The translations under genes and the position numbers were made by a program. A DNA stretch of 45,667 bases. It comes from a virus. Below are positions 29,191 to 44,807 of this stretch, in pieces. The stretch covers positions 1 through 45,667 of the IMG/VR virus record IMGVR_UViG_3300029240_000018; one strand, 5' to 3'. The notes beneath the pieces are model-generated. The model was not told where the DNA came from, did no database searches, and worked only from the letters and a program-made list of their open reading frames with translations. Position 1 is the stretch's first letter. Every line of letters starts with the position of its first letter.

Positions 29191-30046
29191 TAATTTGTCC
29201 GTATTGCCTTTTTATGAGGGCGTACAATATCAAGATTACCGCAAAAGTTATGCGTATGGCGACGTTTACCCGTTATTTACGCCGATAAATAAGTTATTGC
29301 CTTTTCAAATCATACGACCGACACGGAGCAACCAAATTGCATGGGTTCGATTGTATAATTACAAAATGACAAAGAGAATAGCGGATATAACGCAACCAAT
29401 GAAAGAAACCGGGTTGCAAATCGTCCGTAATCAATCATACGGTTATGACGTTATATTATACCCCGGTAACTTGTTAATGGCTTTGGATGAAGCAACGGAG
29501 GGTCGTTATATGATTGCAATAAACGACGGCGTACAAACTTATTATTCGGACGTATTTACGTGGGTTAATGGAATGGACGGTTATTTGTGTATAGAATGGA
29601 GCGACGCCGAAAACATGGGGGTTGACGGCGGACAAATCGTTTACGATGTTGCACAATTCAAAAACCGGGTATATGTGTGTGCCGAATTGGGAAAACCGGA
29701 ATACAAATTTGAGGAAGAGGGCGAAGAGCGGGACGGGTATTTTTTCCCGGAAAAACAAATATCGGAAAAAACGTTTCGGTTTATCTTTTTAGCCCCGGAG
29801 TATCTTTGTGACGTAATGCGATTAATCCGTATGAGTGACTTTGTTACGGTATATAGTCAAGGACGGAAATATGATTGCGATACGTTTTTGATTACCCCCA
29901 AATGGCAGACACAGGGTAATTTAGCGTCCGTTGAATGTGAGTTTGAATGCGCAACGGTCGTTAAGAAAATCGGACGGGGTGTTTTGCCGCCGGGAGCAAA
30001 TGGAGATTTTAACAACGATTTCAATAACGATTTCAACAATCAGTAA
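29177..30046 (+). CDS. Tail-associated hypothetical protein ending in (DFNN)x3
   Basis: 289 aa. Three 12-bp tandem units at 30005-30040 encode DFNNDFNNDFNN. Confidence 0.5.
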   Translation: MTPNNNLSVLPFYEGVQYQDYRKSYAYGDVYPLFTPINKLLPFQIIRPTRSNQIAWVRLYNYKMTKRIADITQPMKETGLQIVRNQSYGYDVILYPGNLLMALDEATEGRYMIAINDGVQTYYSDVFTWVNGMDGYLCIEWSDAENMGVDGGQIVYDVAQFKNRVYVCAELGKPEYKFEEEGEERDGYFFPEKQISEKTFRFIFLAPEYLCDVMRLIRMSDFVTVYSQGRKYDCDTFLITPKWQTQGNLASVECEFECATVVKKIGRGVLPPGANGDFNNDFNNDFNNQ

Positions 30047-30057
30047 TTTATTTTTTT

Positions 30058-33000
30058 ATGGGAAATTATGAACAATTAAAAGCCGCAATTGCCGCCGTTA
30101 TCAAACAAAACGGGAATAATGAGATAACGGGCGATTTGTTGCAAAACACGCTAACAACGATTGTTAGCAATGTGGGGAGTGAATCAACGTTTGCGGGGGT
30201 CGCAACGCCGGACACCGTGCCGGGTTCCCCCGACCAAAACGTTTTTTACATTGCCGGAACCCGTGGCGTTTATTCCAACTTTGATGGCACGGTATTAGTT
30301 AACGAAATGGTCGTTTTCACAAATGAAACGGGCGTTTGGACGTCGCAAAACATTGGTATCGCTTTAAATGGTGTGCCGAATTTGTTTTTAGGTATTGGAT
30401 ATGTTCGTAAGGACAACGGGAATATTAATACCCCGTCAACTTCTTTTCGGAGTACACCGTTTATTCCGATTGATGTAACAAAGGATTTGCAAATTAAAGC
30501 CTATGAGGGCGTAACAAATCTAATGGCGTTTTGTGCGTTCTATGATAGTGATTACAAATTTATTTCGGTATGGCAACCGGGCGGGGCGTCCGATGGAACC
30601 CGAACCGCCGTAATACCCGCCGCACAAATCCCGGCAAATGCGGTATATGTGCGTTGTTCCGGGCATGGTAACACAACGGACAATTACGTTATCCCGTTTG
30701 ATTTGTACAATGTGTTGGTAAATTTGGCGACAAAAACCAACGTTGATGCCGTAATTGCTCAAATTAACACGTATTTACAAGGTAGTTACGTTTATAGAGG
30801 TATAGTTAGCCCGGCAACAATACCGTCGTCCACGGTATCGAATGTTTTTTATATCGCCACAACGCCCGGTATTTATACCAATTTCGGCAATTTCGAGGTA
30901 ACGAACCGTTTAACCATATTTCGCAGAACAAACCCGACGGACGAATTTGTTGCAACCGAATTGGGCGTACCATTAAACGGCGTGCGTTCCCTGTTTAGAG
31001 AAATTGGGTATATTCGTAGCGATAACGGAGAGGTAAACACGGATTCGACGTCGTGGCGTTGTACGCCTTTTTTGCGTATAAACGAAAATACAGATTTCAA
31101 AATCAAAGCGTCGGTTAGTGAAGAGGGATTAACGGCGGCGTGTGCTTTCTATGATGAAAATTATAATTTCATATCTGCAATTACCATTCCGGGAACCGGG
31201 CAATTTGTTGTTGATGTTGCCGCCGCCGATATTCCCGCCAATGCCGTATATATGCGTTGTACAGGTTCAGAAAATACCGGATATGTATTGCCGTGGGATA
31301 TATTCGATTTGATTAAAGACGTAAATAGTAAAGCAAGCCAAACCGACGTAAACAACGTTTATGGCGATTTCTTTACGATACCCGATTATGGATTGAGTTA
31401 TACAACCGGAGTACCAATAAAACAAACTATTCCGGGATATACTATTACGCCGTTTATTCCATTAAACCGGGATGCCGATTTGATTGTTTCCGGTTACAGG
31501 GGCGGCGGTAATACAGCGTTGTTGTGTTTCTATGATAAGGACGAAAATTTTATATCGTCAATTTTTGAGCAAATAAGTAGCGGTTATCACAAAGATTATT
31601 TAATCAAAAAAGAAGATTTCCCGGAAAATGCGGCGTTGATACGTGCCGGGGGTAATACAAATTACGATTGTTATATTAGAAATATGACGGTTAAATATTT
31701 GTTAGATGTAATTGAGGGTAACACATGGTTAGATATGTTTTATTTTTACCCGGATAAAATATACTCAACCCGTGCCGAGGCTTACAACGATGTGCCGGGA
31801 TATATGCGCAAAGCAAATCTAACAATCAAATACCGTTTGAACGAACCCAACAACGTTGTTGTTGAAACGTCGTTAACTAATATAAATTGGGATAGTGAAA
31901 CTAATTGGAGGGGCGAACAAATGCGGGATATTATCGAGGGTAATTATTTGTACGCAATAATCGACGCCAACAACAATGTTTTATTTTCCATTGATGAATA
32001 CGGGTATTGTCGTTTTAAAAGTGATGTTACAAACTTTTTGAGCGTTGAGGAATGGGATTATCTTTACGCAATTGTTGACGCTGAAAACAATATTGTTTTC
32101 GCAATCGACAAATACGGCAATATCGTTGGAAAATCCGGGCAATCCGTGGGGTCGTCGCTTATATCTAACAATCTGAAAAATCAAAGCGATATGTTAACGA
32201 CGTTAAGCGATGTAAGGAATTACGGAGCGCAAAACGCCGAATATCTAATTGATTTGAATTTTATCGGGCGTGTGTCTGTTAAGGGTAAGATAAAAAACCC
32301 GGTAAATGATGTTAACGGTTATGTCCCCTTTGCCACGTTTGAGAACGGCGGAGCAATTGCAGCGACCCAATCAGTAAAACACGCAATACCAACACAGGCA
32401 ACGGAAACAATTTACGGGGTTACGGGTAAAGTGCCGTTTTCCTTGTTTCAATCCGGGTTTGCTTGCAACAATGCCGAAATTGTATATAACAGAGTAGCGA
32501 AAGCCGGAAGCACACACAACGGAGGGCGTAACAATCTTTGCGGCGATAAAGTAATGATGTTTTGGTTTAAAGGGTTAGACGTGATTAACAAAGCGTATGC
32601 CATAACTAACTATGAAACCGCCGACGATTATTTTATACCCGATACCGACACGTGGGGCGAAAGTACGTTGCCAATTATTGTGGAACCTGTAAACGGAGTT
32701 GCAACCATTGATTTGTTAACGCCTAATCGCTTGTATTTCGTTACCGGAAAAGTAAAGAAAGTTGTTATTGCAGATAAACGCCGGACAACCGAGGATATTA
32801 ATACAACATGGGTTAGTTCGTCACAATCTTACATTGTGGTTAATTGGGACAATCCAATTGATGCAACCCCGGTAGATACCGGAGCGTCCGGCATTGTTGT
32901 TGGTTCCGGTTCAGAAACCCCGGTTGCCGATGGTTTTAGTACCTTGCAAATGAAAGGCAATAATTATATCATTAAAAACACGGCTACACGTGCATTTAAT

Positions 33001-34368
33001 AATTATTTGCCCTATGAGGAATTAAAAGCCCGTAGCGAGTTATTTGCACAATATCAAGATTTGTACATTGACCTTTCAAACGACACGTTTACGGTTGGTC
33101 GTGATAGTACCGGGGTAATCTTTACCACGCCTTTAAAAGATGGTTCCGGCGCATGGAAAACGTTACAGGCGTTATATGAGGAATTTGTACCGCCAACGCC
33201 AAACGATAGTTACCCCCGTGAGGGCTACCCGCACGCAGTGATACCGGAATTATCGGATTTTTACATTACGTTTTATGATATGCCCGCAAAAGATTGTTCA
33301 ACCATTTTGCAAAATGGCAAAATATACCTTATCGGGGAATATCCGCAACAAATGGTTTTAAATCCGTGCGGTTCGGCAAATGCGCCTTATAATTTGCCTT
33401 ATACAAATCAATTTGATTGTTTCCCGTATTGGATTTATGACAAATACGATACACAAGAACACGTGTTTGATTACATAATTGGCAACGAGCGTATCAAAGT
33501 GTATGTAAATGGGGAAAAGTTGACCGAGATAAACAAGACGTCGCAATTACGTATCGGAAATGCTTTGTCGGATATTCAATTTACCGATTTGGAAATTACA
33601 AAGGGATATTTGGGCGATGCCGAGGTTATGAGCGACGATTATTATTTAGTATCGTCCCGGACGCCGTTTTGTTTCGGTATGATTTGCCACAATATTTATG
33701 ACACATATATTGGCTCAAATCATGCGCTTTCAAATAGTGGGGCGTCAATTACTCAAATGATGGTTATTGCAAAGCAATTGCACGACAAAGGTTATACGAC
33801 CTTATCAATGCAACAATTAGCGGATTGGAAAGCCGGGAATTATAAGATACCGCCTAAATCCGCCGTATTAGTATGCGATGATTGGCAAATACCCCGAAAT
33901 TGGTTAGGGCAACCGAGCGGACAACAAACAACAAAAATGGGCTTTGATTTTCGTGTAAAACAAAGTTTCCTAAAGTATGGATTGAAGTTGAATTTTGCGC
34001 AAGTTGGCGACCACATGAAAGGGTTAAACCATGATATTGTAATGAATATCAGAATGAGCAATTGCGGCGTTGGCAACCATACCCGTTGGCACAATGAACC
34101 GATACAACAAAAACCCGTTCCGACTTTATTTTTGGAATTGCAGGAAATGCGGTATATGATGCACGAATACGGGTTTAACGACGATGTATTTGTTTATAAT
34201 AAATCGGGGGGTACGTTTGTGGCTCAACAGGATTTGTTAGATTACTTTGGTTATTCGGCGGGGGTTGGTTTAGGATTATTAACCGATAAATACACCCGCA
34301 TTATAACAAATCGCTTTTCGTTAAATAGAACGAATATAGGCGATAATGCAGTTATTGACGTATTATAA
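30058..34368 (+). CDS. Tail fibre/receptor-binding protein with tandem binding-module repeats and a C-terminal NodB-like (polysaccharide deacetylase) domain
   Basis: 1436 aa. Internal repeats span aa 44-222, 245-421 and partly 445-545. A YLYAI(I/V)DA.NN..F.ID.YG pair is present. The C-terminus has VLVCDDWQ…LNFAQVG…GNHTRWH. Confidence 0.65.
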   Translation: MGNYEQLKAAIAAVIKQNGNNEITGDLLQNTLTTIVSNVGSESTFAGVATPDTVPGSPDQNVFYIAGTRGVYSNFDGTVLVNEMVVFTNETGVWTSQNIGIALNGVPNLFLGIGYVRKDNGNINTPSTSFRSTPFIPIDVTKDLQIKAYEGVTNLMAFCAFYDSDYKFISVWQPGGASDGTRTAVIPAAQIPANAVYVRCSGHGNTTDNYVIPFDLYNVLVNLATKTNVDAVIAQINTYLQGSYVYRGIVSPATIPSSTVSNVFYIATTPGIYTNFGNFEVTNRLTIFRRTNPTDEFVATELGVPLNGVRSLFREIGYIRSDNGEVNTDSTSWRCTPFLRINENTDFKIKASVSEEGLTAACAFYDENYNFISAITIPGTGQFVVDVAAADIPANAVYMRCTGSENTGYVLPWDIFDLIKDVNSKASQTDVNNVYGDFFTIPDYGLSYTTGVPIKQTIPGYTITPFIPLNRDADLIVSGYRGGGNTALLCFYDKDENFISSIFEQISSGYHKDYLIKKEDFPENAALIRAGGNTNYDCYIRNMTVKYLLDVIEGNTWLDMFYFYPDKIYSTRAEAYNDVPGYMRKANLTIKYRLNEPNNVVVETSLTNINWDSETNWRGEQMRDIIEGNYLYAIIDANNNVLFSIDEYGYCRFKSDVTNFLSVEEWDYLYAIVDAENNIVFAIDKYGNIVGKSGQSVGSSLISNNLKNQSDMLTTLSDVRNYGAQNAEYLIDLNFIGRVSVKGKIKNPVNDVNGYVPFATFENGGAIAATQSVKHAIPTQATETIYGVTGKVPFSLFQSGFACNNAEIVYNRVAKAGSTHNGGRNNLCGDKVMMFWFKGLDVINKAYAITNYETADDYFIPDTDTWGESTLPIIVEPVNGVATIDLLTPNRLYFVTGKVKKVVIADKRRTTEDINTTWVSSSQSYIVVNWDNPIDATPVDTGASGIVVGSGSETPVADGFSTLQMKGNNYIIKNTATRAFNNYLPYEELKARSELFAQYQDLYIDLSNDTFTVGRDSTGVIFTTPLKDGSGAWKTLQALYEEFVPPTPNDSYPREGYPHAVIPELSDFYITFYDMPAKDCSTILQNGKIYLIGEYPQQMVLNPCGSANAPYNLPYTNQFDCFPYWIYDKYDTQEHVFDYIIGNERIKVYVNGEKLTEINKTSQLRIGNALSDIQFTDLEITKGYLGDAEVMSDDYYLVSSRTPFCFGMICHNIYDTYIGSNHALSNSGASITQMMVIAKQLHDKGYTTLSMQQLADWKAGNYKIPPKSAVLVCDDWQIPRNWLGQPSGQQTTKMGFDFRVKQSFLKYGLKLNFAQVGDHMKGLNHDIVMNIRMSNCGVGNHTRWHNEPIQQKPVPTLFLELQEMRYMMHEYGFNDDVFVYNKSGGTFVAQQDLLDYFGYSAGVGLGLLTDKYTRIITNRFSLNRTNIGDNAVIDVL

Positions 34369-34388
34369 ATTTTTTAAAAAGTAAAAAT

Positions 34389-35363
34389 ATGAAGACAGTT
34401 GTTTTAAAATTAGAGGAAACCGCAATAGGCGAGTTTGAAAAATTGGGCGTTTATCGCATTAATTTAAACCGTAATGCAACGGTTGATAACGTGGGCTTTA
34501 TCCATTTAAGCGCATTAACCGCCAATGTTAGTGTAATGACTATTGTAAACGCTGAATTTTACCAAGATGCGGAAACAACGCAATCATTAGGGCAACAATA
34601 TATTATGCCCGCCGGAATTTCAACGTTATATTTTAAAGTTACAGGCGGCAACCCTTACATTGAAATTTCAAACCCATACAACATTAATATGTTTGGAGGT
34701 TCGGGAAATTACCTATTTGGCGAGGGGTCAAGCCGGGCAAATGGATATATTTATACGGACGACTTGTATAAATTGGCAGGATTACGCACTCTTTGGACGT
34801 CGTTAGCCGGATTAGTAGGCGAAGTTAGGAATATACCGGAGTATATAACGGATTTGCGAGTTGAAAACGCCGGGTTATCCGGTTCATTGGCAGACTTAAA
34901 ACCGGAAGTATTGACAATGTTACGTTTCCGACAAACAGGGGTAATAGGTCGATATTCAGATTTTGCGGGTAAAACCATAACACAGACGATATTAGATTTG
35001 CCATTGGTAACAGGCGATATTATCGACTTTTTGAACGTGAACGGATTGCAAAGGCTTTCAATTGGTAATCCGGCACTAACTACAATTTCCCCGGCATATC
35101 CGGTAACGTGTGCTTTAAGTTCTGTTAGATATTTCCCAACTCTCACATACTTAACAATGAAAAGAGTACATTTAACCCGTGCCGTATTATTAAGCACGTT
35201 GCAAAGTTTGACCCAAACAACGTGGAATAATATAACAGGAACACAAGTTGAGTTAACAACAACCATGTCGCAAACAGATTACAACGCTGATACAGAAATA
35301 CAATCCGCCGTTACTGCATTGAAAGCGGTATTAAAGGGCAATTTTGTTATCAACTTTGCATAA
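34389..35363 (+). CDS. Leucine-rich-repeat-like tail-associated protein
   Basis: 324 aa. The C-terminal half has irregular L/I-spaced repeats (…LRVENAGLSGSLADL…LRFRQTGVIG…LDLPLVTGDI…LQRLSIGNPALTTI…). Confidence 0.4.
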   Translation: MKTVVLKLEETAIGEFEKLGVYRINLNRNATVDNVGFIHLSALTANVSVMTIVNAEFYQDAETTQSLGQQYIMPAGISTLYFKVTGGNPYIEISNPYNINMFGGSGNYLFGEGSSRANGYIYTDDLYKLAGLRTLWTSLAGLVGEVRNIPEYITDLRVENAGLSGSLADLKPEVLTMLRFRQTGVIGRYSDFAGKTITQTILDLPLVTGDIIDFLNVNGLQRLSIGNPALTTISPAYPVTCALSSVRYFPTLTYLTMKRVHLTRAVLLSTLQSLTQTTWNNITGTQVELTTTMSQTDYNADTEIQSAVTALKAVLKGNFVINFA

Positions 35364-35369
35364 TTAACC

Positions 35370-35391
35370 GCCGGGGGCGCAATCCCCCGGC
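35370..35391 (+). promoter_or_regulatory. GC hairpin GCCGGGGG-cgcaat-CCCCCGGC, an exact copy of 38020-38041
   Basis: 8-bp stem read directly. A 23-nt identity is shared with the second copy. Confidence 0.6.
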
Positions 35392-35408
35392 AATAATATT
35401 TTAATGAT

Positions 35409-35924
35409 ATGGATAAACTTTTTACGTGGGAACAATGGCGTATGATATTTGCCACGTCGTTAAGTCCTGTTTTAGCCTATTTAACCCCAACGGCGGGTTT
35501 TATGTACGCATTGGTTATAATGTTCGCTTTCAATATTTGGGCGGGTATGCGGGCGGACGGGGTAAGTGTAAAGCATTGCAAAAACTTTCGTTTTGGAAAG
35601 TTTAAGAACGCATTAGCGGAATTGTTGTTGTATGTTACCATTATACACGTTATTTATTCGGTAATGCTGCAATGTGGGGATAATGACGCCGCCCAAATAG
35701 TAATTAAATCGCTTACTTATGTTTTCATGTACGTATATTTGCAAAATGCGTTTCGCAATCTTATAAAGGCATACCCCACAAAGGTAGCGTTGCGCATTAT
35801 TTACCACGTTATCCGGTTGGAATTTACACGGATATTGCCGGGATATTGGCAACCAATCATTGAGAGATACCAACGGGAACATGACGATATTATTAACGAT
35901 AAAGAAAAGGAGGGCGAAAAATGA
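35409..35924 (+). CDS. Putative holin
   Basis: 171 aa with several hydrophobic helices. An ATGA overlap links it to the amidase gene. Confidence 0.55.
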   Translation: MDKLFTWEQWRMIFATSLSPVLAYLTPTAGFMYALVIMFAFNIWAGMRADGVSVKHCKNFRFGKFKNALAELLLYVTIIHVIYSVMLQCGDNDAAQIVIKSLTYVFMYVYLQNAFRNLIKAYPTKVALRIIYHVIRLEFTRILPGYWQPIIERYQREHDDIINDKEKEGEK

Positions 35925-36436
35925 ACCAAAGCGAAATTTTAACCTATTTGCAAGGTCAAAAGGCAAACCGGACGATTACGGATTTAATCGTACATTGTAG
36001 TGCAACGAAACCCGGTGCAAAAGTCAATGTTGATATTATCGACGGTTGGCACAAACAACGGGGTTTTAAAAAGCAACCGCAAAGCGGGCGAATTTGTGGT
36101 TATCACTTTGTTGTATTGCCGGACGGAACAATTGAAACCGGGCGTTACTTATCGGAGATTGGAGCGCACGTGTCCGGACAAAATTCCCGGTCGATTGGTA
36201 TTTGTTACGTCGGCGGATTGGATGCCAACGGCAAAGGAGCGGACACACGCACCCCGGAGCAAAAAGAGGCTTTAATTTGGTTGTTATCCCGGTTAGCCTG
36301 TATGTTCCCGGATGCAACCATTAAGGGACACCGGGATTATAGCCCGGATTTGAACGGCGACGGAATTATTGAGCCGTGGGAGTATATAAAAGAGTGTCCG
36401 TGTTTTGATGCGGCAATTGAATATAGTAACATTTAA
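35921..36436 (+). CDS. N-acetylmuramoyl-L-alanine amidase (T7-lysozyme/PGRP type endolysin)
   Basis: IVHCSATKPG…WHKQRGF…GYHFVV…DGTIETGR…GAHV…NSRSIGICYVGG…KECPCFD aligns motif by motif with T7 lysozyme. Confidence 0.93.
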   Translation: MNQSEILTYLQGQKANRTITDLIVHCSATKPGAKVNVDIIDGWHKQRGFKKQPQSGRICGYHFVVLPDGTIETGRYLSEIGAHVSGQNSRSIGICYVGGLDANGKGADTRTPEQKEALIWLLSRLACMFPDATIKGHRDYSPDLNGDGIIEPWEYIKECPCFDAAIEYSNI

Positions 36437-36439
36437 TTT

Positions 36440-37054
36440 ATGAAAAAGTATTTGATTTTGAAGGCAATCATTTTGGCGGTTGCCGCCGCCTTTTGGGTAC
36501 AACAAAAGCGCATTAATAATTTGACCGTGGAGCGGGACAAATACCGGAGCAATACCGAAACGTTATTGCAAGATGTAAAGACGTACCAAACGAAAGATAG
36601 TTTGAACGCCGCAAAGGTTGGCGGGTTGGAGTTGAAATTATCGGAGTTCAAAAAATACCGGGCGGACGATGCGGCGTTGATAAAATCGTTGCAGACAAAG
36701 AACCGGGATTTGCAAAGGGTTACGACTGCACAAATGGAAACGATAAACGAATTACGGGCGAACGTCCGGGATAGTATTGTATATTTGCCCGGCGATACGG
36801 TTACGACCGTATTACGTTGTATTGACATTGTGGAACCGTGGTTTGAGTTGCACGGATGCACAACGCCCGCCGGGGTATTTACCGGGACGCATATAAACCG
36901 GGATAGTCTGTTAATAGCGGAAACGGTGCAATATAAACGCTTTTGGGGGTTCCTTTGGAAAACAAAGAAGATAAAGAACCGGGAAATTGACGTTGTAAGC
37001 AAGAACCCATCTACCCGAATATTGGGGGTTGAGTTCGTAACCATAGAAAAGTAA
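36440..37054 (+). CDS. Lysis accessory/spanin-like protein (N-terminal TM plus coiled coil)
   Basis: MKKYLILKAIILAVAAAFWV anchor followed by a coiled coil. It is the last gene of the late operon. Confidence 0.4.
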   Translation: MKKYLILKAIILAVAAAFWVQQKRINNLTVERDKYRSNTETLLQDVKTYQTKDSLNAAKVGGLELKLSEFKKYRADDAALIKSLQTKNRDLQRVTTAQMETINELRANVRDSIVYLPGDTVTTVLRCIDIVEPWFELHGCTTPAGVFTGTHINRDSLLIAETVQYKRFWGFLWKTKKIKNREIDVVSKNPSTRILGVEFVTIEK

Positions 37055-37061
37055 TAAACCG

Positions 37062-37093
37062 GGGGTTGTAACAAGACGTTGCAACCCCTTTTT
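37062..37093 (+). terminator. Strong rho-independent terminator at the end of the late operon
   Basis: 11-bp stem GGGGTTGTAAC / GTTGCAACCCC (one G-U pair), a 5-nt loop, then TTTTT. Confidence 0.9.
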
Positions 37094-37258
37094 CTATTGA
37101 CGCATTTTTAGCCCGTTTCCGGGCATTTTATTTCAAAGTGGATAATTTACCCGTCCCGCTTGCAAAAGTCGCTTAAATCGAAAATTCCAAGAAAATAACT
37201 CTTTTGGAACCAAAAACGGAATTTTTTATAGGAAAACACGAAAATAAAAGATAAAACC

Positions 37259-37289
37259 TTTGGTAATTAAAATAAAGGTTGTATATTTG
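37259..37289 (+). promoter_or_regulatory. Early promoter P1 (TTTGGTAAT-N-TATATTTGC)
   Basis: TTTG 37259-37262, a 19-nt spacer, then TATATTTG 37282-37289. It is collinear with 45269-45299. Confidence 0.7.
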
Positions 37290-37308
37290 CATCATCAAAC
37301 AAGAACGA

Positions 37309-37324
37309 CCGGGCGTTTTCCCGG
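37309..37324 (+). promoter_or_regulatory. Leader hairpin CCGGG-cgtttt-CCCGG
   Basis: Part of the 20-nt string acgaccgggcgttttcccgg, which is repeated exactly at 45316-45335. Confidence 0.7.
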
Positions 37325-37344
37325 AAAATAGAGAGCGAAACAAT

Positions 37345-37596
37345 ATGAATACTCAAAGCATTTATAACGGATTAGATTACACAACAAAAGAGATTAACCG
37401 CAATTTCAAAATCAAGGTAAACGGAATTGTAAACGGCAAAAAGGTTAATGTATTGGTTGGCGTGTCCGGTTTAATAAAGATTGTCGGCGACATTAAGTTA
37501 GTCAATCGCTTATTAAAACGTGCTTTCAATTGTTACGGAGACAAAGAGGTTTGCAAATTGCGCCGAGGCGTTAAAATCACTTTCTATTATCAGTAA
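37345..37596 (+). CDS. Early small hypothetical protein
   Basis: The internal ATG 37345 is used, because the track start at 37279 is TTG and lies inside the promoter. 83 aa. Confidence 0.55.
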   Translation: MNTQSIYNGLDYTTKEINRNFKIKVNGIVNGKKVNVLVGVSGLIKIVGDIKLVNRLLKRAFNCYGDKEVCKLRRGVKITFYYQ

Positions 37597-37604
37597 ACAA
37601 CGAC

Positions 37605-37618
37605 GGGGCGTTTTCCCC
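37605..37618 (+). promoter_or_regulatory. Variant leader hairpin GGGG-cgtttt-CCCC
   Basis: acgacggggcgttttcccc has the same loop and flank as the P1 and P3 hairpins. Confidence 0.55.
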
Positions 37619-37640
37619 AGAACAATATAAATTTTCAATC

Positions 37641-38012
37641 ATGGCAAAGTACATTTTAGTTAAGAAAGTAAAGGGAAAGAAATACGAGTACCAAGTTATT
37701 GACGTTGATAGTAAAGCGATTGTTTCAAAAAGAACGTCCGCCCGTGATTATGTGGCGTGTACCGCCGACGGTTCGTTTTATTTCGGGCGTTTGGATTTAA
37801 TCGGGAAAGGCGACCACGGCAAAAGATTGAGCCATACGGCGGCAATATTGGCAAACCCGGAGGCGGCATATAAAAAACAAGTTGCATACTTTACGCCGGA
37901 TTATCGGAGTAAATGGATAGCCGAAAACCCCGCCGAACAATGGATTGCCCGAAACGTTGAATATGCGACAAAGGAAAAAGAGAGATTAAACGCAATTGCG
38001 TATTTGCAGTAA
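37641..38012 (+). CDS. Early hypothetical protein
   Basis: 123 aa with an ATG start. Confidence 0.55.
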   Translation: MAKYILVKKVKGKKYEYQVIDVDSKAIVSKRTSARDYVACTADGSFYFGRLDLIGKGDHGKRLSHTAAILANPEAAYKKQVAYFTPDYRSKWIAENPAEQWIARNVEYATKEKERLNAIAYLQ

Positions 38013-38019
38013 TAACCAA

Positions 38020-38041
38020 GCCGGGGGCGCAATCCCCCGGC
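38020..38041 (+). promoter_or_regulatory. GC hairpin, an exact copy of 35370-35391, followed by CATAACCATTTAGAGCGATG
   Basis: Read directly. Confidence 0.6.
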
Positions 38042-38057
38042 ATAACCATTTAGAGCG

Positions 38058-38273
38058 ATGAACAAAACGAAACGTTACCGATTAAGTCAAGATATGTATA
38101 AGATAATCCAAAATGCAAACGGCGGGTTATTTTTGCTTTATACCCGGCACAATCCCGGCGATGTGTTGAACCTATTGTTAGACGGCAACGATATTGGGTT
38201 GACGTGCCGAGTTGAGAGCCGACACGACCAATATTATAAGTATTGCAAAGTAATTACGGAGGGCGTACAATGA
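38058..38273 (+). CDS. Early small hypothetical protein
   Basis: 71 aa. The start is embedded in TTAGAGCGATG. Confidence 0.55.
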   Translation: MNKTKRYRLSQDMYKIIQNANGGLFLLYTRHNPGDVLNLLLDGNDIGLTCRVESRHDQYYKYCKVITEGVQ

Positions 38274-38788
38274 GCCGTAACAGAGAGCGACAACAAGAAT
38301 TGCAGCCGGGGCGGGTCGATTACGCCCGTACCCGGTTGGAGGCGTTGGGCTATCCGGTTATGGAGGTCAACGCCACGACCTTACAATTTACTTTCCGGGG
38401 TTCCCCGGTTACATTATACCCGTATTCCGGTTGGTTTACCGGGCGCACCGTTACCGATGGACGGGGAATTAAGAACCTATTAAAACAAATACCTATGCGA
38501 TTTGCATTAAGAAAACAAGAAAAGATAAAAGCGTATTTTGAGCCAAACGGGGACGAAATATTGAACCGGATAAAAGAAAGTTTAACCCGGTATTTTTCCG
38601 CCGACCGTTCGGAGTTCCCGGAGGGGTTCCGGGATATTGAAAGCGATTATAACCAATTGCCGGGGGAACCGTACCCAACCATTGCGATAAACGACACCGG
38701 GAACCCGGAACGTATGATTGAGTTCTATGTTACCGGGAAACAATACGACGTTTACCATGTGGCATTTAAAGGATTTACAAAGGGTTAA
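38270..38788 (+). CDS. Hypothetical protein
   Basis: ATG 38270 forms an ATGA overlap with GGAGGG upstream. 172 aa. Confidence 0.55.
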   Translation: MSRNRERQQELQPGRVDYARTRLEALGYPVMEVNATTLQFTFRGSPVTLYPYSGWFTGRTVTDGRGIKNLLKQIPMRFALRKQEKIKAYFEPNGDEILNRIKESLTRYFSADRSEFPEGFRDIESDYNQLPGEPYPTIAINDTGNPERMIEFYVTGKQYDVYHVAFKGFTKG

Positions 38789-38791
38789 TAT

Positions 38792-39067
38792 ATGGGAATG
38801 ATAAAAAGGAATTGCGACAATTGCGGCAAAGAATACAACGCCGATACCCGGAATTTACGCCGAGGTTGGGGACGTTGTTGTTGTAAGAGTTGCGCCGCCC
38901 AATTGAGGGAAAAGAATAAACCCGGATATAACCCGGAACGGGTCGCCGTAAATAATGCACGCCGGAAATTTTGGGCGGATTGCCCGGAACCGGAACATTA
39001 CCCGTTGAGTTATGACGGGGCGGATTTCGACCAATGGGGGGATTGTGAATTTGGAATACATGATTAA
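38792..39067 (+). CDS. Small zinc-ribbon protein
   Basis: CDNCGKEY…GWGRCCCKSC. Confidence 0.5.
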   Translation: MGMIKRNCDNCGKEYNADTRNLRRGWGRCCCKSCAAQLREKNKPGYNPERVAVNNARRKFWADCPEPEHYPLSYDGADFDQWGDCEFGIHD

Positions 39068-39073
39068 AAAGAT

Positions 39074-39106
39074 AACCCCCGACGCAATGAAGTAACGCCG
39101 GGGGTT
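39074..39106 (+). promoter_or_regulatory. Hairpin AACCCCCG…CGGGGGTT (8-bp stem, 17-nt loop)
   Basis: Read directly. No T-run follows, so terminator function is uncertain. Confidence 0.35.
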
Positions 39107-39220
39107 GGTACGCAGTAACCGAGAGCGATGTTTTAGGTTATGCGGTGCAACAAAATTAGTGCTTTTTATCTGTATTACAAGCGTCCAACATGAACAAATA
39201 AAACTTTCAAAGGTTTTATT

Positions 39221-39251
39221 TTTGGTAATACAAATATTATTTATACATTTG
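39221..39251 (+). promoter_or_regulatory. Early promoter P2 (TTTGGTAAT-N-TACATTTGC)
   Basis: TTTG 39221-39224, a 19-nt spacer, then TACATTTG 39244-39251. Confidence 0.65.
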
Positions 39252-39267
39252 CAGAAACAAAAACCCA

Positions 39268-39283
39268 CCGGGGGAGTACCCGG
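39268..39283 (+). promoter_or_regulatory. Leader hairpin CCGGG-ggagta-CCCGG
   Basis: It occupies the same position relative to the -7 box as the P1 and P3 hairpins. Confidence 0.55.
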
Positions 39284-39290
39284 CAAAGAT

Positions 39291-39725
39291 ATGAGAATAA
39301 AAGAGAGCGATTTATTAAAAAAATTGGCGACCGATAGCGGGAAAACAGCCAACCAAGTTGCCGAAATTATCATTTCGGAATTACTCAAAAACAAAGTTAT
39401 TGAGGACACCCCGGAAAATTGGGGCGTTTCCGTTTTCGATGCAATAAACGAGGACGTAACCGAGGAACAAACCGCCAATTGTTATGCGGCTATTTCCGAG
39501 GCGTTGGGCGTGTATCTGAAACGGGTATATTTCATTGTCCCGGATTTGGATTTAATGGGTAACGACGATTGCCCGGAATGCGGCGGCGAAATGGAAGTTA
39601 CCGACGGCGAATATAAACAGACCGGAGGCGACGGATATTTGACCCCGCCGGAATATACCGCAATTTGGGAGGAAATGACGTGTACGCATTGCGGACACAA
39701 AGAGAGCAACGAACCGAGTTATTAA
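39291..39725 (+). CDS. Acidic early protein with a C-terminal zinc ribbon
   Basis: The internal ATG 39291 is used, because the track ORF start at 39105 runs through the promoter. CPECGG…CTHCGH, with many D/E residues. Confidence 0.55.
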   Translation: MRIKESDLLKKLATDSGKTANQVAEIIISELLKNKVIEDTPENWGVSVFDAINEDVTEEQTANCYAAISEALGVYLKRVYFIVPDLDLMGNDDCPECGGEMEVTDGEYKQTGGDGYLTPPEYTAIWEEMTCTHCGHKESNEPSY

Positions 39726-39743
39726 CAATAAAAGACTAAAGAA

Positions 39744-39986
39744 ATGGCAGAAATGACGAAATTAAGAGTAAACGAGGCAATCGCACGGGCGCAAACCGCC
39801 GGAATTAAAGTTTATAAAAAAGAGGTTGCCGCCCGGTTATGGGAGGGACGCACCGAAAGCGCACAACAAGTTAATATGACTAACTTATGTAACGGAACGA
39901 CTAAACAGATACGCCCGGAATGGGTCGTTATCATTTGCGAAATGTGTAATTGTACCCCTAATTATTTGTTTGGCTATGAAGAATAA
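39744..39986 (+). CDS. XRE-family helix-turn-helix regulator (Cro/Aca-like)
   Basis: 80 aa. …KEVAARLW…QVNMTNLCNGTT…ICEMCNCTPNYLFG is the typical HTH_3 ending. Confidence 0.7.
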   Translation: MAEMTKLRVNEAIARAQTAGIKVYKKEVAARLWEGRTESAQQVNMTNLCNGTTKQIRPEWVVIICEMCNCTPNYLFGYEE

Positions 39987-40188
39987 CGGGTTACAATGGT
40001 TTGAACGCATGGCGGACGTTATGTTTTCCGATAGGTTCCAAGCGAAAGCGATTATTGCGACATTTGGAACGTTGGGCGTTGTTTGTCTGATTGGCGCATT
40101 TTGGAACCCGTGGCAATTGATGTTTGCGGGTCTGTGTGCCGCAATGGTATTATGTGGATTTTCAGAATTAAAAAAGAGTAGAAAATGA
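39976..40188 (+). CDS. Small membrane protein
   Basis: ATG 39976. Two hydrophobic helices (IIATFGTLGVVCLIGAF and LMFAGLCAAMVLCGF). Confidence 0.45.
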   Translation: MKNNGLQWFERMADVMFSDRFQAKAIIATFGTLGVVCLIGAFWNPWQLMFAGLCAAMVLCGFSELKKSRK

Positions 40189-41528
40189 GAGCGAACAAAA
40201 AGAAACCGGAAAACCCGGTACAAAAGACGGTTGAAAGTTTGGGAGCCGTTCCCGCCGACCAATTCCCGGAAATTACCGAGGAACAACAACAAATAATCCC
40301 ACCGTTTGAAGCGGTCGAGGTTGAACAACCAACCGGAATATTTGAGATATTGCCGGGCATGACGGTTGAGGAAATGACGGCAATGTTTTTTGATGAAAAA
40401 ACGTTGATTGAACCCCCGTATAAGGTTTGGCAATTGAATAGTAAGGGACACCGCTATTATTACCGATATGACGACAACGGGAACCCGGAGTTTTTCCCGT
40501 CGGTTACAACGATATTGTCCCAAACGTTACCCAAAGCCCCGCACTTAATACAATGGATTGCCAACAAAGGCATTGAGGAAGCGGAACGATACAAAGGCGA
40601 ACGGGCGGCGTATGGTACGTTTATGCACGCCGCATTTGAGGAATTATTAATTAACCGGGCTTATGATTTGGACGGGTTAAAAGGCAAACTAAAAGAATAT
40701 ATTGAGGTTTACCGATTGCCGGACGATTTTATATATTATGCCGACGATTTGAAAAAGGACGTATTGGCGTTTGCTCAATTCGTATTAGATTACGACGTGC
40801 GCCCGTTGGCGGTTGAAATTGCTTTAGTGCATCCATATTACAAGTATGCCGGAATGATTGATTGCCCGTGTACCATGTTGGCAAAGATAGGCGGCGACGA
40901 ACGTATTAACGCAATCGTCGATTTTAAGAGCGGACGCAAAGGATTTTACGAGGAAAGCGAGATACAATTAGGGATGTACCGGGATATGTGGAACGTCAAT
41001 TTTGAGCAATTCCCCGTTACCCGTATTTTCAATTTCAGCCCGAAAGATTGGCGCAAACGTCCGTCGTACAATCTGAAAGAACAAACGGATAGCCCCAATA
41101 TACGGAAAATCCCGTATCTGTTAGAAATTGCAGCCATTGAGGACGAAAAGAAAGATAATACGTTTACGTCGGTTAATGGTATGGTTTTATTGGATAATGC
41201 ACCCGATTTGACGCAAAACGTAATATCCTTATCGTTGGCGGAATTGATTAAAACGAAAGCCCCAAAGGAGGCGACCCCGGACGAAAACACGGACGCCGCC
41301 GAGAAAGTCAAGGCGGATGCACCGGAACCGGAAAAGGAGCCAAAGAAAACAACCATTGTTAAACGTGCGCCCAAAAAGGCAAAGGAGGCGGAAAAGAAAG
41401 CCGCCACGGGCAAAACGACCGCAAAGCGAGGTAATACCACGGAAAAGAAAGTAAAGCCCGCAAACGAGCCTAAAAAGCCCAAAAATGAGAGTAGGAAAAA
41501 GATGTTGAACGACGACCCCGAAATTTAA
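40185..41528 (+). CDS. PD-(D/E)XK (RecB/Cas4-like) nuclease with a Lys/Ala/Pro-rich C-terminal tail
   Basis: GTFMHAAFE…, GMID…IVDFKSG…EIQLGMY (D, DxK and QxxxY motifs). The last 90 aa or so are KKxK-rich. Confidence 0.6.
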   Translation: MRANKKKPENPVQKTVESLGAVPADQFPEITEEQQQIIPPFEAVEVEQPTGIFEILPGMTVEEMTAMFFDEKTLIEPPYKVWQLNSKGHRYYYRYDDNGNPEFFPSVTTILSQTLPKAPHLIQWIANKGIEEAERYKGERAAYGTFMHAAFEELLINRAYDLDGLKGKLKEYIEVYRLPDDFIYYADDLKKDVLAFAQFVLDYDVRPLAVEIALVHPYYKYAGMIDCPCTMLAKIGGDERINAIVDFKSGRKGFYEESEIQLGMYRDMWNVNFEQFPVTRIFNFSPKDWRKRPSYNLKEQTDSPNIRKIPYLLEIAAIEDEKKDNTFTSVNGMVLLDNAPDLTQNVISLSLAELIKTKAPKEATPDENTDAAEKVKADAPEPEKEPKKTTIVKRAPKKAKEAEKKAATGKTTAKRGNTTEKKVKPANEPKKPKNESRKKMLNDDPEI

Positions 41529-41533
41529 TTATT

Positions 41534-41737
41534 ATGAATATAGTATATTACGCAGTTGATGAGAGTGGACGGGCAATTGTACATACAGAAAAACCCGAAA
41601 GATGTACACGGGATTTTGATAGCCCCGTTTGGATTGATGCGGTTGAACTATTGGGAGAAATACCGCCGGAATTATCGCATATAAATTGGGAAAATTCGCC
41701 CGTTAAATTAGAGTTAAATATAAAAATTGTTGAATGA
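41534..41737 (+). CDS. Hypothetical small protein
   Basis: 67 aa. Confidence 0.45.
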   Translation: MNIVYYAVDESGRAIVHTEKPERCTRDFDSPVWIDAVELLGEIPPELSHINWENSPVKLELNIKIVE

Positions 41738-42453
41738 TGAAAGGAAGAATAAAACGACCGGAGGCGCAACAATCCCGTTTGATATTGCCCCGTGTCGGTC
41801 AAATAAAAATCGGTATGAAAAACGCAAACGGTTATCCGCAAAGCGTTGATTACTTCATACCAACGGGAAAATATGCCGGGTTATTTACACAGGCATACGG
41901 CGAAAAGCCGCAAACAATACAAATTGTTTTCCCGGACGACGACCCGGCAAAAGTATGTAACGAGCGTTACGAATACCGGGACGACGACGGGCGATTGATT
42001 GCGGCGGGCGATGGCGACGCATTCCAAGTATGGGACGGAAAGAAATACGAAACGTTGACAACGGAGAAATACCCAAACTTAATGCAGTCAATAACGAAGC
42101 GTTACCCGAATAAAAAGAGCCGCCAACCGGATTGCGACGGTTGGGAGGTAACATTAACGCTAAACTTTATTGTTCCTTTGGTTCGTGGGGTTGCCGGGGT
42201 TTGGCAATTCGCAACAAAGGGAACGGCGTCCACAATCCCGCAAATACGGGAAACGTTCGACGGTATGTTAGCGGAACGGGGATTTTGCAAAGGCATTATC
42301 TTTGATTTGAATGTACAATTTGCCACGACCCAAAAGCCGGGCGACCGTTCCCGTTTTCCCGTCGTGTCGTTGGTTCCCAATGAGAGTGCAGACAATGTTT
42401 TGAAAGTACGTAAAGCATGGGAACCCGTTAAAAAATTGGAGGGCGGCGAATAA
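41734..42453 (+). CDS. Hypothetical protein (possible annealase/recombination partner, by position only)
   Basis: 239 aa, between the nuclease and the initiator. No motif assigned with confidence. Confidence 0.4.
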   Translation: MMKGRIKRPEAQQSRLILPRVGQIKIGMKNANGYPQSVDYFIPTGKYAGLFTQAYGEKPQTIQIVFPDDDPAKVCNERYEYRDDDGRLIAAGDGDAFQVWDGKKYETLTTEKYPNLMQSITKRYPNKKSRQPDCDGWEVTLTLNFIVPLVRGVAGVWQFATKGTASTIPQIRETFDGMLAERGFCKGIIFDLNVQFATTQKPGDRSRFPVVSLVPNESADNVLKVRKAWEPVKKLEGGE

Positions 42454-43298
42454 TGGCGGATACTATCAGACGAACCAAAAGGACGGGTAATTTTACGACC
42501 GTCCGCAACGAATATTTACAGGACGTAAATTTGAGTTGGAAAGCAAAGGGATTGATAACGTATATTATGAGTTTACCCCCGGATTGGCAATTGAATTTGT
42601 CCGATTTAAAAAATAGGTCAAAGGACGGACGGGACGCAACCGCCGCCGGATTACGTGAATTGATAACGAACGGATATTGCCAACGTTGCAAAGTTCGTGG
42701 CGACGGCGGAACGTTCGTCGGGTGTGATTACGAGGTTAGCGATATTAAAGAGTTTGAACCACAAACGGAAAACCCGTTTATGGATGCGCCACAAACGGAA
42801 AATCCGGTTGCGGTAAATCCCGAAACGGAAAAACCCGATACGGGAAAGCCGACATTAATAAATACTAATCTTACTAAAGACTCAAATACACTAAATACTA
42901 ATCCAAGTAATACGCCGCAAAATGCTTTTGCGTCTTTGTTCCCCGACGAACCAAAGGTTGAGGAACCAAAGGAGAAAAAAACGTTATTCCGCAATTCCGA
43001 CGTTTACAAAATGGTTAAATTTGAAAACGGCGTTGGCGTGGATTATTCCGAGTTTGAAAGTAAGTTTGCGACCCCGGAATTTGAAAAGGTCGATTTGGTT
43101 TATTACTTTCATTCGGTTAGCGATTGGAGCGACCAAAAGAATATGAAGCGAACTAAAAACGGTTGGTTGGCGACCGTCCGCAATTTCATACGGGGGGACG
43201 TCGAAAAGAAAAAGTTGCATTTGAAACCCGAATACAAAGCCCCAACGCACAGATTGAACGTTGCCGGGGCTATTGAGTATTTGAAAGATGATTATTAA
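42453..43298 (+). CDS. Replication initiator/replisome organiser (N-terminal winged-helix type)
   Basis: FTTVRNEYLQDVNLSWKAKGLITYIMSLPPDWQLNLSDL…GRDATAAGLRELITNGY, then PQTENP/ETEKP decapeptide repeats. Confidence 0.6.
   Translation: MADTIRRTKRTGNFTTVRNEYLQDVNLSWKAKGLITYIMSLPPDWQLNLSDLKNRSKDGRDATAAGLRELITNGYCQRCKVRGDGGTFVGCDYEVSDIKEFEPQTENPFMDAPQTENPVAVNPETEKPDTGKPTLINTNLTKDSNTLNTNPSNTPQNAFASLFPDEPKVEEPKEKKTLFRNSDVYKMVKFENGVGVDYSEFESKFATPEFEKVDLVYYFHSVSDWSDQKNMKRTKNGWLATVRNFIRGDVEKKKLHLKPEYKAPTHRLNVAGAIEYLKDDY
42759..42912 (+). repeat. Origin-like element: three 30-bp-phased iterons plus an AT-rich segment with two AAATACTAATC repeats
   Basis: CCACAAACGGAAAA(C/T)CCG at 42759 and 42789, and CCCGAAACGGAAAAACCCG at 42819. 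AAATACTAATC at 42860 and 42893. Confidence 0.55.
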
Positions 43299-44256
43299 CA
43301 TGGAAGCATTACCCGAAAAGACAAACAGATTGCCACAAACGTTGCCCGAAAAACGACAATCCGCCGCCGTTTTGCTTTATAGCGGAACGGCAAAAGCAAT
43401 TGACGTTCGCCGGGCGATGGTTGAGTTACCGGAGGTTGCCAAAGCATTAACCCCGGTTGAAAAGTATATTTTCGTGGCGTCCACAAAAAAACAGATTGCC
43501 GAGATTGACGACGAAACGTTGATTGCCAAAACCGGGCAAATGTTCCGGTTTATCGCAATGGACGTGGGGTTTATCATTCCCACGGAAAACCGGGACGATT
43601 GGACGTATATTTGTACCCGGTTGTTGGATTTACTAAAACGCTATTATTCGCAATTAACATTGTCCGAGGTTAAATTAGCGTTTGAATTGCTGATTACGGG
43701 GGAATTGGACGACTATTTGCCAAAGGATAGGGACGGGAACGCAGAACGGAAACATTACCAACAATTCAACGCCGATTATTTCGCAAAGGTATTGAACGCA
43801 TATTGCCGGAAACAAAACCAAGTTATCGGCAAAGCATATACAGCGTTACCGGAACCGAAAAAGGAGTTAAGCCCGGAGCAAATCCGGTATTATCGCAATC
43901 AATCGGTTATGACTTGTTTAATGTGTTTTTTGCGCTATAAATATACCGGGCGTTTAGTGTTTGGATTAACCGACGAAATGTTTGTTTATAATTGGTTGTT
44001 GGGCGTTCGGTTAGCGGATGAAGTGAAAGAAACCGAGGACGACCGGAAAGAAGCATATAACCGATTTTTGGCACGTGCCGCCCGTGGGTTAGTTAATGAA
44101 TTTACGGTTTACCACGTTCGTAAACAAGGAACCCAAAGCCCGGAAATTGATTATACAGCCTTTGAGGTTGCCCGGCGTAAAGAAATTAAACGGACTTTCG
44201 ACCGAATGATTAAGGACGAAATTTATATTTACCATTATTTGAAATTTGAAAAATGA
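43288..44256 (+). CDS. Hypothetical protein (replication accessory by position)
   Basis: 322 aa. An alternative start is ATG 43300. Confidence 0.5.
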   Translation: MIINMEALPEKTNRLPQTLPEKRQSAAVLLYSGTAKAIDVRRAMVELPEVAKALTPVEKYIFVASTKKQIAEIDDETLIAKTGQMFRFIAMDVGFIIPTENRDDWTYICTRLLDLLKRYYSQLTLSEVKLAFELLITGELDDYLPKDRDGNAERKHYQQFNADYFAKVLNAYCRKQNQVIGKAYTALPEPKKELSPEQIRYYRNQSVMTCLMCFLRYKYTGRLVFGLTDEMFVYNWLLGVRLADEVKETEDDRKEAYNRFLARAARGLVNEFTVYHVRKQGTQSPEIDYTAFEVARRKEIKRTFDRMIKDEIYIYHYLKFEK

Positions 44257-44807
44257 AAATAGATTGCATTATTGGAATTGACCCCGGAGCCGCCGGGGGT
44301 ATCGTGGTTTGGCGACCCAACCATAACGCAACGGCAATAAAGATGCCTAAAGACATTAACGAGATACGGGATTTTCTCAATTACTACAAAGAGATTAGCA
44401 CGCCGATTGTCTTTTTGGAAAAATTGAGCGTTCGCCCGGACGACGTAACGGTTGGGGATGCCGGGGCAAACATGGGTAAGTTGTACCGCATTCAAAAGAT
44501 GTTGCAAAACTTTGAGCATTTGAAAGCTATTATAACCGTCGCCGAAATACCATTTGTTTTGGTTAATGCTATGAAGTGGCAAAACGACCTTAAATTGCGT
44601 ATCAAAGTAAAAGGGAAAAAGGAGGAAAAGGCAGACCGCAAACGACGGTTCCGGGATATTGCCGGGAAATTATACCCGGAAATTACCCCGGCGTTGTGGA
44701 ATGCGGACGCAACGTTAATAATGCACTTTGGACGGTTCATTTTACAAAACAACCCCCGTTGGGTTTTGGAAAATTTGCCCCAACAAATGCACAACCGTTT
44801 ATTTTAA
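44253..44807 (+). CDS. RuvC-like Holliday junction resolvase
   Basis: IIGIDPGAAGG (Asp), VFLEK (Glu) and NADATLIMHFGR (C-terminal acidic/His motif). Confidence 0.7.
   Translation: MKIDCIIGIDPGAAGGIVVWRPNHNATAIKMPKDINEIRDFLNYYKEISTPIVFLEKLSVRPDDVTVGDAGANMGKLYRIQKMLQNFEHLKAIITVAEIPFVLVNAMKWQNDLKLRIKVKGKKEEKADRKRRFRDIAGKLYPEITPALWNADATLIMHFGRFILQNNPRWVLENLPQQMHNRLF

Follow-up and report, generated by a model that had tools for sequence, protein, structure and literature searches.

Promoter and leader units of a PDS1-like phage

The window analysed here is the whole 45,667-nucleotide (nt) stretch of the IMG/VR virus record IMGVR_UViG_3300029240_000018, a complete genome of a PDS1-like siphophage of gut Bacteroidales, and our subject is a 20-nt element that stands in the leaders of its putative early promoters P1, P2 and P3, as well as between genes, and that probably folds into a miniature RNA pseudoknot. 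Bases 1-99 of the window are repeated exactly at 45569-45667, and the IMG/VR record reports direct terminal repeats and a completeness rating of 100%. The long open reading frames (ORFs) all lie on the plus strand, with no minus-strand gene among them. Nucleotide searches returned Parabacteroides phage PDS1 and Bacteroides phage C1_85S2P (97%), Parabacteroides phage PD491P1 (L004; 94%), Alistipes phage AS73P1 (79%), Bacteroides phage BKO1-3 (77%) and Elizabethkingia phage TCUEAP2 (74%). P1 is located downstream of the lysis genes and of two terminator-like hairpins, the P2 block includes a helix-turn-helix (HTH) gene, an exonuclease and replication genes, and the P3 block crosses the circular junction and ends at a terminator-like hairpin at 11506.

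An earlier reading of the letters alone, hereafter the original prediction, had claimed three promoter-plus-hairpin units, and these proved to be real: the exact pattern TTTGGTAAT-N12-16-TAnnTTTGC has 3 matches in the window (37259, 39221 and 45270) versus 0.00 expected in 100 shuffles, all of them in intergenic gaps 5' of plus-strand genes. The three spacers measure 19 nt each and the boxes agree, as had been proposed, with the Bacteroidota primary-sigma promoter (-33 TTTG and -7 TAnnTTTG, about 19-21 nt apart, intergenic), the relatives of the phage infecting Bacteroides, Parabacteroides, Alistipes and Elizabethkingia. P1 and P3 were said to share an upstream element and a hairpin-forming 20-mer, and by direct reading both the upstream 18-mer and the 20-mer (ACGACCGGGCGTTTTCCCGG, at 37305 and 45316) are identical; only the start of the P3 unit had to be moved by one nucleotide, its A-tract beginning at 45250 and not at 45249. 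Moreover, a repeat finder (family D5) aligned 37239-37348 with 45250-45359 at 74% identity over 110 nt, and, with up to 3 mismatches allowed, the 20-mer has 3 matches in the window versus 0.01 expected. Across 91 unique units, an A-tract block (aAAAtAAAAga.AA) is strongly conserved and information content reaches its maxima at the A-tract, the -33 box, the -7 box and the 20-mer, which is conserved as strongly as both boxes, while the spacer and the sequence 3' of the hairpin drift. In F. johnsoniae, transcription starts 4-5 nt 3' of the -7 box (PMC6847099), and following this rule the fold would begin at about +9 to +12 of each leader. We infer from the letters the transcription starts, the early timing and the transcribed strand.

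Other claims had to be revised. For P2, the promoter stands, but the hairpin is neither at the same distance from the -7 box (16 nt versus 19 nt in P1 and P3) nor the same hairpin, its loop and flank being different within a similar architecture. The hairpin noticed 5' of the second gene of the P1 operon is a diverged copy of the element, with orthologues whose stems are CGGGG/CCCCG, CCGGG/CCCGG and CCCGG/CCGGG. Finally, the element is not tied to promoters as first thought, since copies also lie between genes (37600, 5590), the latter with an orthologue in Elizabethkingia phage L006 at 35811; the common trait is a distance of 16-22 nt to a start codon. A covariance model built on 65 distinct elements retrieved four window copies (45308, 37592, 37297 and 5579), all on the plus strand, the last of them missing from the original prediction. 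The coordinates and properties of all these features are given in Table 1.

Table 1. Promoters, element copies and adjacent features of the window (S1 and S2, helices, and L1 and L3, loops of the proposed pseudoknot; bits, covariance-model score; TSS, transcription start site; bp, base pairs).
Feature	Position	Strand	Remarks
P1 upstream A-tract (UP-like), CGAAAATAAAAGATAAAA	37239-37256	+	identical 18-mer 5' of P3
P1 promoter	37259-37289	+	-33 TTTG(GTAAT) 37259-62; 19-nt spacer; -7 TATATTTG 37282-89; predicted TSS ~37294
P1 leader element	37305-37324	+	ACG (S1 5' strand) 37305-07; A (L1) 37308; CCGGG 37309-13; loop CGUUUU 37314-19 (CGU = S1 3' strand, UUU = L3); CCCGG 37320-24; fold -7.9 kcal/mol; 42 bits; 20 nt to ATG
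Gene 1 of the P1 operon	37345-37596	+	83 amino acids; phrog_32997; element copies on both sides
Intercistronic copy, ACGACGGGGCGTTTTCCCCA	37600-37619	+	stem GGGG/CCCC; 47.4 bits; 3 mismatches to the 20-mer; terminal pair broken (C.A); 21 nt to ATG at 37641
P2 promoter	39221-39251	+	TTTGGTAAT at 39221; -7 TACATTTG 39244-51; predicted TSS ~39256
P2 leader element	39264-39283	+	flank CCC-A; CCGGG 39268-72; loop GGAGUA; CCCGG 39279-83; fold -10.5 kcal/mol; 21 bits only; ATG 39291 7 nt downstream
P3 upstream A-tract	45250-45267	+	same 18-mer as P1, by direct reading
P3 promoter	45270-45300	+	TTTGGTAAT; TTTG 45270-73; 19-nt spacer; -7 TATATTTG 45293-45300; predicted TSS ~45305
P3 leader element	45316-45335	+	same 20-mer as P1; 47.6 bits; stem extendable to 6 bp (45319-45336); 20 nt to ATG at 45356
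Intercistronic pseudoknot-type copy	5585-5607	+	flank CCG-AC; stem GCCGGG/CCCGGC; loop CGGGUU; 35.7 bits (5579-5619); 17 nt to ATG at 5625
Two terminator-like hairpins with T runs	37059-37135 (37061-37089, 37111-37124)	+	close the late/lysis block just 5' of P1

Several further features surround the promoters. A fourth host-type promoter, TTTGGCAAT...TAAATTTG, is present at 11558-11589, 3' of the terminator-like hairpin 11506-11525; devoid of A-tract and of leader pseudoknot, it is followed by a purine-rich leader of ~110 nt and then by a gene at 11849, an arrangement (11506-11848) kept in all close relatives. This gene (11849-12532), which has no Pfam family, is annotated either as 'RNA polymerase sigma factor' (PDS1, C1_85S2P) or as 'Rnase E' (BKO1-3, phrog_645), and its location just 5' of the large terminase suggests that it encodes the small terminase. 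A 37-nt repeat (consensus CAAAAGnCnC..AAATCGAAAATyCC..AAAATAAC) occurs in three copies with 78-81% identity (11641-11677, 37163-37199 and 44859-44895), one lying ~60 nt 5' of P1 and one after the late promoter, and a similar string is found 5' of a promoter unit in L082. At the end of the P1 operon, 5' of P2, there is also an imperfect long hairpin without a T run (CCCCCGaCG-N11-CGcCGGGGG, 39076-39110).

Stem covariation and a probable pseudoknot

The evidence for a selected RNA structure comes from the relatives. In the alignment of the 65 distinct elements, for which some distant sequences were picked by eye, 97.8% of the stem cells are paired and both-sided changes are seen in 4/5 pairs; stem covariation amounts to 0.300, versus 0.085 in shuffles (0/500) and at most 0.083 in slid-partner controls. 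Orthologous stems read CCGGG/CCCGG, CGGGG/CCCCG or CCCGG/CCGGG, and CCGGA/UCCGG or UACGG/CCGUA in distant relatives, while the P2-type stems of relatives (CCGGG, CCCGG, CGCAC) are 100% paired with covariation in 4/5 pairs. Relatives that keep the promoter boxes with loss of the stem pairing had been put forward as a refutation of the original prediction, and when this was examined the pairing was found to be maintained through compensatory changes. Because relatives keep the stem in this manner, a transcribed and selected RNA element with a shared post-initiation role, as originally suggested, is well supported at the level of sequence comparison.

A second helix, unseen in the original prediction, probably involves the flank of the stem. 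Indeed, positions -2 to -5 relative to the stem are complementary to loop bases 1-4 (83.8% of cells paired versus 68.6% when shuffled) and covary with them (0.332 versus 0.111 in shuffles, 0/500), through the sets ACG/CGU, CCG/CGG, CGG/CCG and CGC/GCG. The loop classes follow the flanks: CGUUUU goes with (A)ACG; CGGGUU, CGGUUU and CGGAUU with CCG; CCGGUU with CGG; and GCGGUU with CGC. Flank and stem are separated nearly always by one unpaired A, and in P2-type elements with 7-nt loops a CCC or CCU flank pairs with GGG or AGG in the loop. The H-type order S1a-L1-S2a-S1b-L3-S2b is observed with compensatory changes in both helices, although these represent few independent events in rows that were partly hand-picked. 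Since the flank is complementary to the loop and covaries with it, the 20-mer is probably a miniature H-type pseudoknot, ACG-A-CCGGG-CGU-UUU-CCCGG. In this ~20-nt fold, loop bases 1-3 would pair with three bases located one nt 5' of a 5-bp G+C stem (S1, 3 bp; L1, A; S2, 5 bp; L3, KUU), and this pairing would explain the invariance of the 'ACGA' flank and of the loop. A one-nucleotide loop 1 crossing a 5-bp stem 2 and a 3-nt loop 3 crossing a 3-bp stem 1 are feasible by the usual rules. ViennaRNA, which does not model pseudoknots, predicts the hairpin alone. The hairpin loop is a 6-nt CGKKUU, and L1 (A) and L3 (KUU) are invariant in sequence beyond the needs of pairing.

The promoter-plus-hairpin unit is present in 6/6 GenBank relatives, including the Elizabethkingia phage TCUEAP2, in which all four promoter units have the ACGACGGGGCGTTTTCC(C/U)CG form. 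An exact-pattern scan of IMG/VR located the unit in at least 106 stretches, nearly all on contigs of 23-47 kilobases (kb), and the covariance model finds four to seven copies in each closer relative. No copies were detected by the model in phages B40-8 and B124-14, which share virion genes with the window and possess similar early promoters followed by leaders devoid of a GC hairpin. In bacterial genome collections, the exact motif occurs only on phage-sized contigs binned in metagenome-assembled genomes (MAGs), apart from a few chance matches in high-GC genomes; in a Dysgonomonas MAG, 4/4 covariance-model matches are on its 46.5-kb phage contig, and 0/200 other genomes of the same order (Bacteroidales) were matched. 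A host regulatory motif or a CRISPR-repeat mimic was rejected on these distributions. Over the whole window, Rfam gave no match at the gathering score, and at E<=5 it returned only noise for 37050-39400. Promoters and hairpins are not mentioned in the PDS1 papers, for which phage a strand-specific RNA-seq data set exists (bioRxiv 10.1101/2024.11.17.624012). The leader element is undescribed and absent from Rfam.

Gene 1 of the P1 operon, which is flanked by two copies, is conserved from Bacteroides to Elizabethkingia phages, including L006, and its homologues are always preceded by a leader or intercistronic hairpin. Its AlphaFold2 model is confident (pLDDT, the predicted local distance difference test, of 86.5) and has no significant match among PDB folds.

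A proposed action on the mRNA and its alternatives

The position of the element is as constant as its fold. In 138/144 unique contexts, whether or not a promoter lies upstream, the hairpin is separated from an ORF start by 16-22 nt, while in distant relatives the -7 box and the hairpin lie 9 to 30 nt apart, and outside the element the leader is predicted to be single-stranded. Thermosensor or riboswitch-like folds hiding the start codon were considered and none is predicted, the leaders being otherwise unstructured. In F. johnsoniae, a structure-poor region extends from -20 to +20 around start codons, and upstream adenines are favourable (PMC6847099). The element is placed at the upstream edge of this region, in which Bacteroidota ribosomes, blind to Shine-Dalgarno sequences, require little structure.

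In the reading that we favour, each unit would be a strong promoter for the host RNA polymerase that switches on one early gene block, with an UP-like A-tract 5' of the Bacteroidota -33 TTTG and -7 TAnnTTTG boxes and with a compact and stable RNA fold in the first ~30 nt of the transcript, its 3' end being separated from the first AUG by 16-22 nt (by 7 nt in P2). The element would act on the mRNA rather than on transcription. By locking up the sole G+C-rich stretch of an A-rich leader, the fold would keep the initiation region open; it could also provide a docking or stand-by surface for the ribosome and impede RNase E-type attack from the 5' end, and for an RNA-binding factor of the phage or of the host it may be the operator of a later shut-off. 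Cassette exchange between relatives would be a by-product, with the invariant block of 20-40 nt as the homologous recombination joint. Such an mRNA-level element at the ribosome-binding boundary, contributing to translation and/or stability, possibly as an operator, and doubling as a recombination joint, is a reading that we hold with middling confidence, the fold in vivo and each functional step being deduced from comparative analysis. A related idea, a block to 5'->3' exonucleases resembling exonuclease-resistant RNAs (xrRNAs), is unlikely, as the host order lacks RNase J (0/31 genomes above the cut-off).

Several points weigh against this interpretation. B40-8 and B124-14 have similar promoters without the element, so that early expression in Bacteroides does not depend on it. 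In P2 a stable fold only 7 nt away from the AUG is expected to hinder initiation, so P2 may work differently, and in the window the P2 element forms only 2 flank-loop pairs unless its stem is taken as 4 bp. More generally, the proposed pseudoknot depends on few independent covariation events and on an S1 of just 3 bp. The search for a binding protein among the early proteins gave none, Pfam and PHROGs being uninformative and the gene 1 model without a counterpart in the PDB. The constant AUG spacing could result from genome compaction, namely from a hairpin that closes the preceding gene and is followed by an initiation region of minimal length. Watson-Crick covariation is the same for a sense and an antisense RNA and cannot tell the two apart, and single-sided stem changes are about as often A.C as G.U, counts being small.

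The choice of strand rests on other features. Strong copies of the element are all on the coding strand, the seeming antisense cases being mis-oriented short loci, and G.U pairs are found on the sense strand of the element. Moreover, nearly all other intergenic gaps of 41-45 nt in the window are organised as a stop codon, a GC hairpin, 14-21 nt of A-rich sequence and ATG, and on the sense strand the loops of these generic hairpins are tetraloops (GNRA, UUCG) or CGCAAU, which argues that the sense RNA is the functional form.

Two kinds of start-proximal sequence were observed besides the element. A second repeat family of intercistronic spacers (155-196, 35364-35408, 38013-38057 and also 1643-1683) has the layout TAATAACC-GCCGGGGG-loop-CCCCCGGC-ATAAnCAnTTAGAGCG-ATG, with a 22-nt hairpin identical at 35370 and 38020. 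In relatives its loops are GNRA, UUCG or CGCAAU, and in L024, L085 and L100 CGCAAT is flipped to ATTGCG, which from its sequence is a small inversion across the palindromic stem. The motif AGAGCGA has 9 copies, all on the plus strand, versus 1.9 expected (191, 10479, 37332, 38052, 38284, 39122, 39304, 40188 and 45359); 4 of them read AGAGCG-ATG at a start codon, 2 read ATG-AGAGCGA and 1 is in the P1 leader. Also found in the Elizabethkingia phage, it looks like a start-associated sequence.

Among the alternatives, the most probable one is an operator for a phage RNA-binding repressor or endoribonuclease responsible for the late shut-off or processing of early mRNA, by analogy with the T4 gp32 pseudoknot, RegA or RegB. 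We regard it as rather unlikely. It would account for the invariance of L1 and L3 beyond pairing needs and for the restriction of the element to early units, the late promoter at 11558 having none; in addition, the element-bearing phages all encode several small proteins and an ASCH-domain protein (9070-9576) that B40-8 and B124-14 lack. However, these candidates have no recognisable RNA-binding fold, gene 1 has no PDB match and the ASCH domain is below the Pfam cut-off. Moreover, an operator overlaps with the reading favoured above, and sequence alone cannot separate the two.

Processive antitermination, one of the options of the original prediction, is improbable. An element of the nascent RNA, alone or with an N-like phage protein, would modify the host RNA polymerase for read-through, as lambda nut sites (boxA and boxB) do. 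There are points of likeness: a phage-specific hairpin with a short, conserved single-stranded flank follows each early promoter closely and recurs behind the first gene, in the manner of nutL and nutR in lambda, and the many GC hairpins without U tracts along the operons could be weak pause or stop sites. Nevertheless, the plus strand shows no above-chance terminator-like sites between the genes of the P2 and P3 operons, and this paucity of evident internal terminators favours translation or mRNA stability over antitermination. Further differences from nut are that the flank pairs with the loop, unlike a linear boxA-like element, that no GNRA-like pentaloop was found, that none of the early proteins was recognised as N-like or NusG-like, and that the fixed 16-22 nt to start codons, which extends to the intercistronic copies, is not expected of nut sites. 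An intrinsic terminator or attenuator on the plus strand was also rejected, the hairpins being followed by A-rich sequence without a U tract.

It is very unlikely that the hairpins are terminators of the opposite strand, in which a minus-strand hairpin with a U-rich tail would stop convergent transcription into the early promoters. Terminator-like calls are indeed obtained on that strand (37324-37309, 37619-37604, 39287-39264, 38041-38020, 45336-45319, 5608-5589 and 181-162), but the window has no minus-strand genes, and the U tails are interrupted (UCGUUCUUG) and are merely the complement of A-rich sense leaders; the sense-strand tetraloops and G.U pairs described above speak against this as well, as do a loop orientation that never flips within the element class and the fixed spacing to sense start codons.

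Equally unlikely is a duplex DNA operator for a dimeric repressor, or a mere recombination linker without any RNA role: an inverted repeat that occupies about +16 to +35 relative to each early promoter, the presence in the P2 operon of an XRE-type HTH gene (39744-39986, from the PDS1 annotation) and mosaic junctions coinciding with the element would fit, but a dimeric operator is disfavoured because the arms vary and differ within one genome, yet stay complementary, while the asymmetric centre and one flank are fixed, flank-loop complementarity has no meaning in duplex DNA, and a pure homology block needs no compensatory changes.

Probable cassette exchange and significance

The mosaic junctions themselves are sharp. 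Sequence identity between contigs L047 and L002, between L060/L084 and L005, and between L067 and both the window and L099 persists to the end of the hairpin's 3' arm, beyond which the sequences are unrelated. In PD491P1, the region 45307..191 is replaced by an HNH endonuclease gene, PDS1 has extra genes inserted at 37638-37649, and ~10 unrelated first genes follow promoter-hairpin units in different contigs. Judging from these comparisons, the element most likely doubles as a homologous recombination joint for gene cassettes in relatives. PD491P1 contains three inserted I-HmuI-type HNH endonuclease genes (21599-22129, 30205-30687 and 5657-6181), one of which lies directly 3' of the P3 promoter, in place of the leader element and the first small genes.

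Similar units are known from the PeSL (promoter early stem-loop) cassettes of T4-type myoviruses (Arbiol et al. 2010, PMC2839356; Comeau et al. 2014, PMC4122927). Both systems have dispersed, near-identical units combining a host-sigma early promoter, an A/T-rich upstream sequence and a G/C stem-loop in front of small uncharacterised genes, with gene-swap junctions in relatives coinciding with the units. The PeSL stem-loop is, however, found inside the promoter, 5' of it or immediately ahead of the TSS, and terminates upstream transcription, whereas the present element is in the leader 16-19 nt after the -7 box, has no plus-strand T run, covaries, has a specific loop and is tied to a start codon. 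Host phylum, promoter type and phage family also differ, and each genome here has just 3-4 promoter units. Bacteroidota primary-sigma promoters (-33 TTTG / -7 TAnnTTTG) and phage promoters with UP elements, such as P_BfP1E6, have been developed as expression tools (bioRxiv 10.1101/2025.03.18.644028). Promoters of this type, like those of B40-8 and B124-14, have the same boxes, 19-nt spacing and A-rich upstream element but lack the conserved leader hairpin.

Regarding the fold and its position, two other phage systems come to mind. The pseudoknot in the 5' leader of T4/T2 gene 32 mRNA is a translational operator that nucleates cooperative gp32 binding. It is likewise a small H-type fold whose loop 1 is a single nucleotide, located close to the 5' end of a phage mRNA and separated from the start codon by an unstructured A/U-rich stretch, but it is larger and serves one autoregulated gene, whereas the ~20-nt element is multi-copy and precedes unrelated genes. 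In cluster K mycobacteriophages, start-associated sequences (SAS) and their extended forms (ESAS), short motifs and inverted repeats, lie at a fixed short distance 5' of many start codons. These conserved start-proximal motifs are reminiscent of the element, and the window also has its start-associated AGAGCGA; the sequence and the host translation system are different, and SAS overlaps the Shine-Dalgarno region, while Bacteroidota ribosomes do not respond to Shine-Dalgarno sequences.

More tentatively, and with clear reservations, we suggest that the 20-nt element may be an undescribed miniature pseudoknot working either as a Shine-Dalgarno-independent translation element (a stand-by or docking site) or as a post-transcriptional operator of the phage, by which a large family of gut phages would launch and then silence its early genes, and which would be mobile together with its promoter. 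In Bacteroidota, translation initiates without Shine-Dalgarno pairing, and little is known of the cis-elements that govern its rate. A small, portable and selected leader fold, standing at the edge of the ribosome window before the first genes of an abundant family of human-gut phages, would thus be a probe of initiation. The promoter together with its leader is a candidate part for Bacteroides engineering, and the element would be a new RNA family for the catalogue. Finally, it would provide a concrete sequence at which PDS1-like phages swap their early and anti-host gene cassettes.

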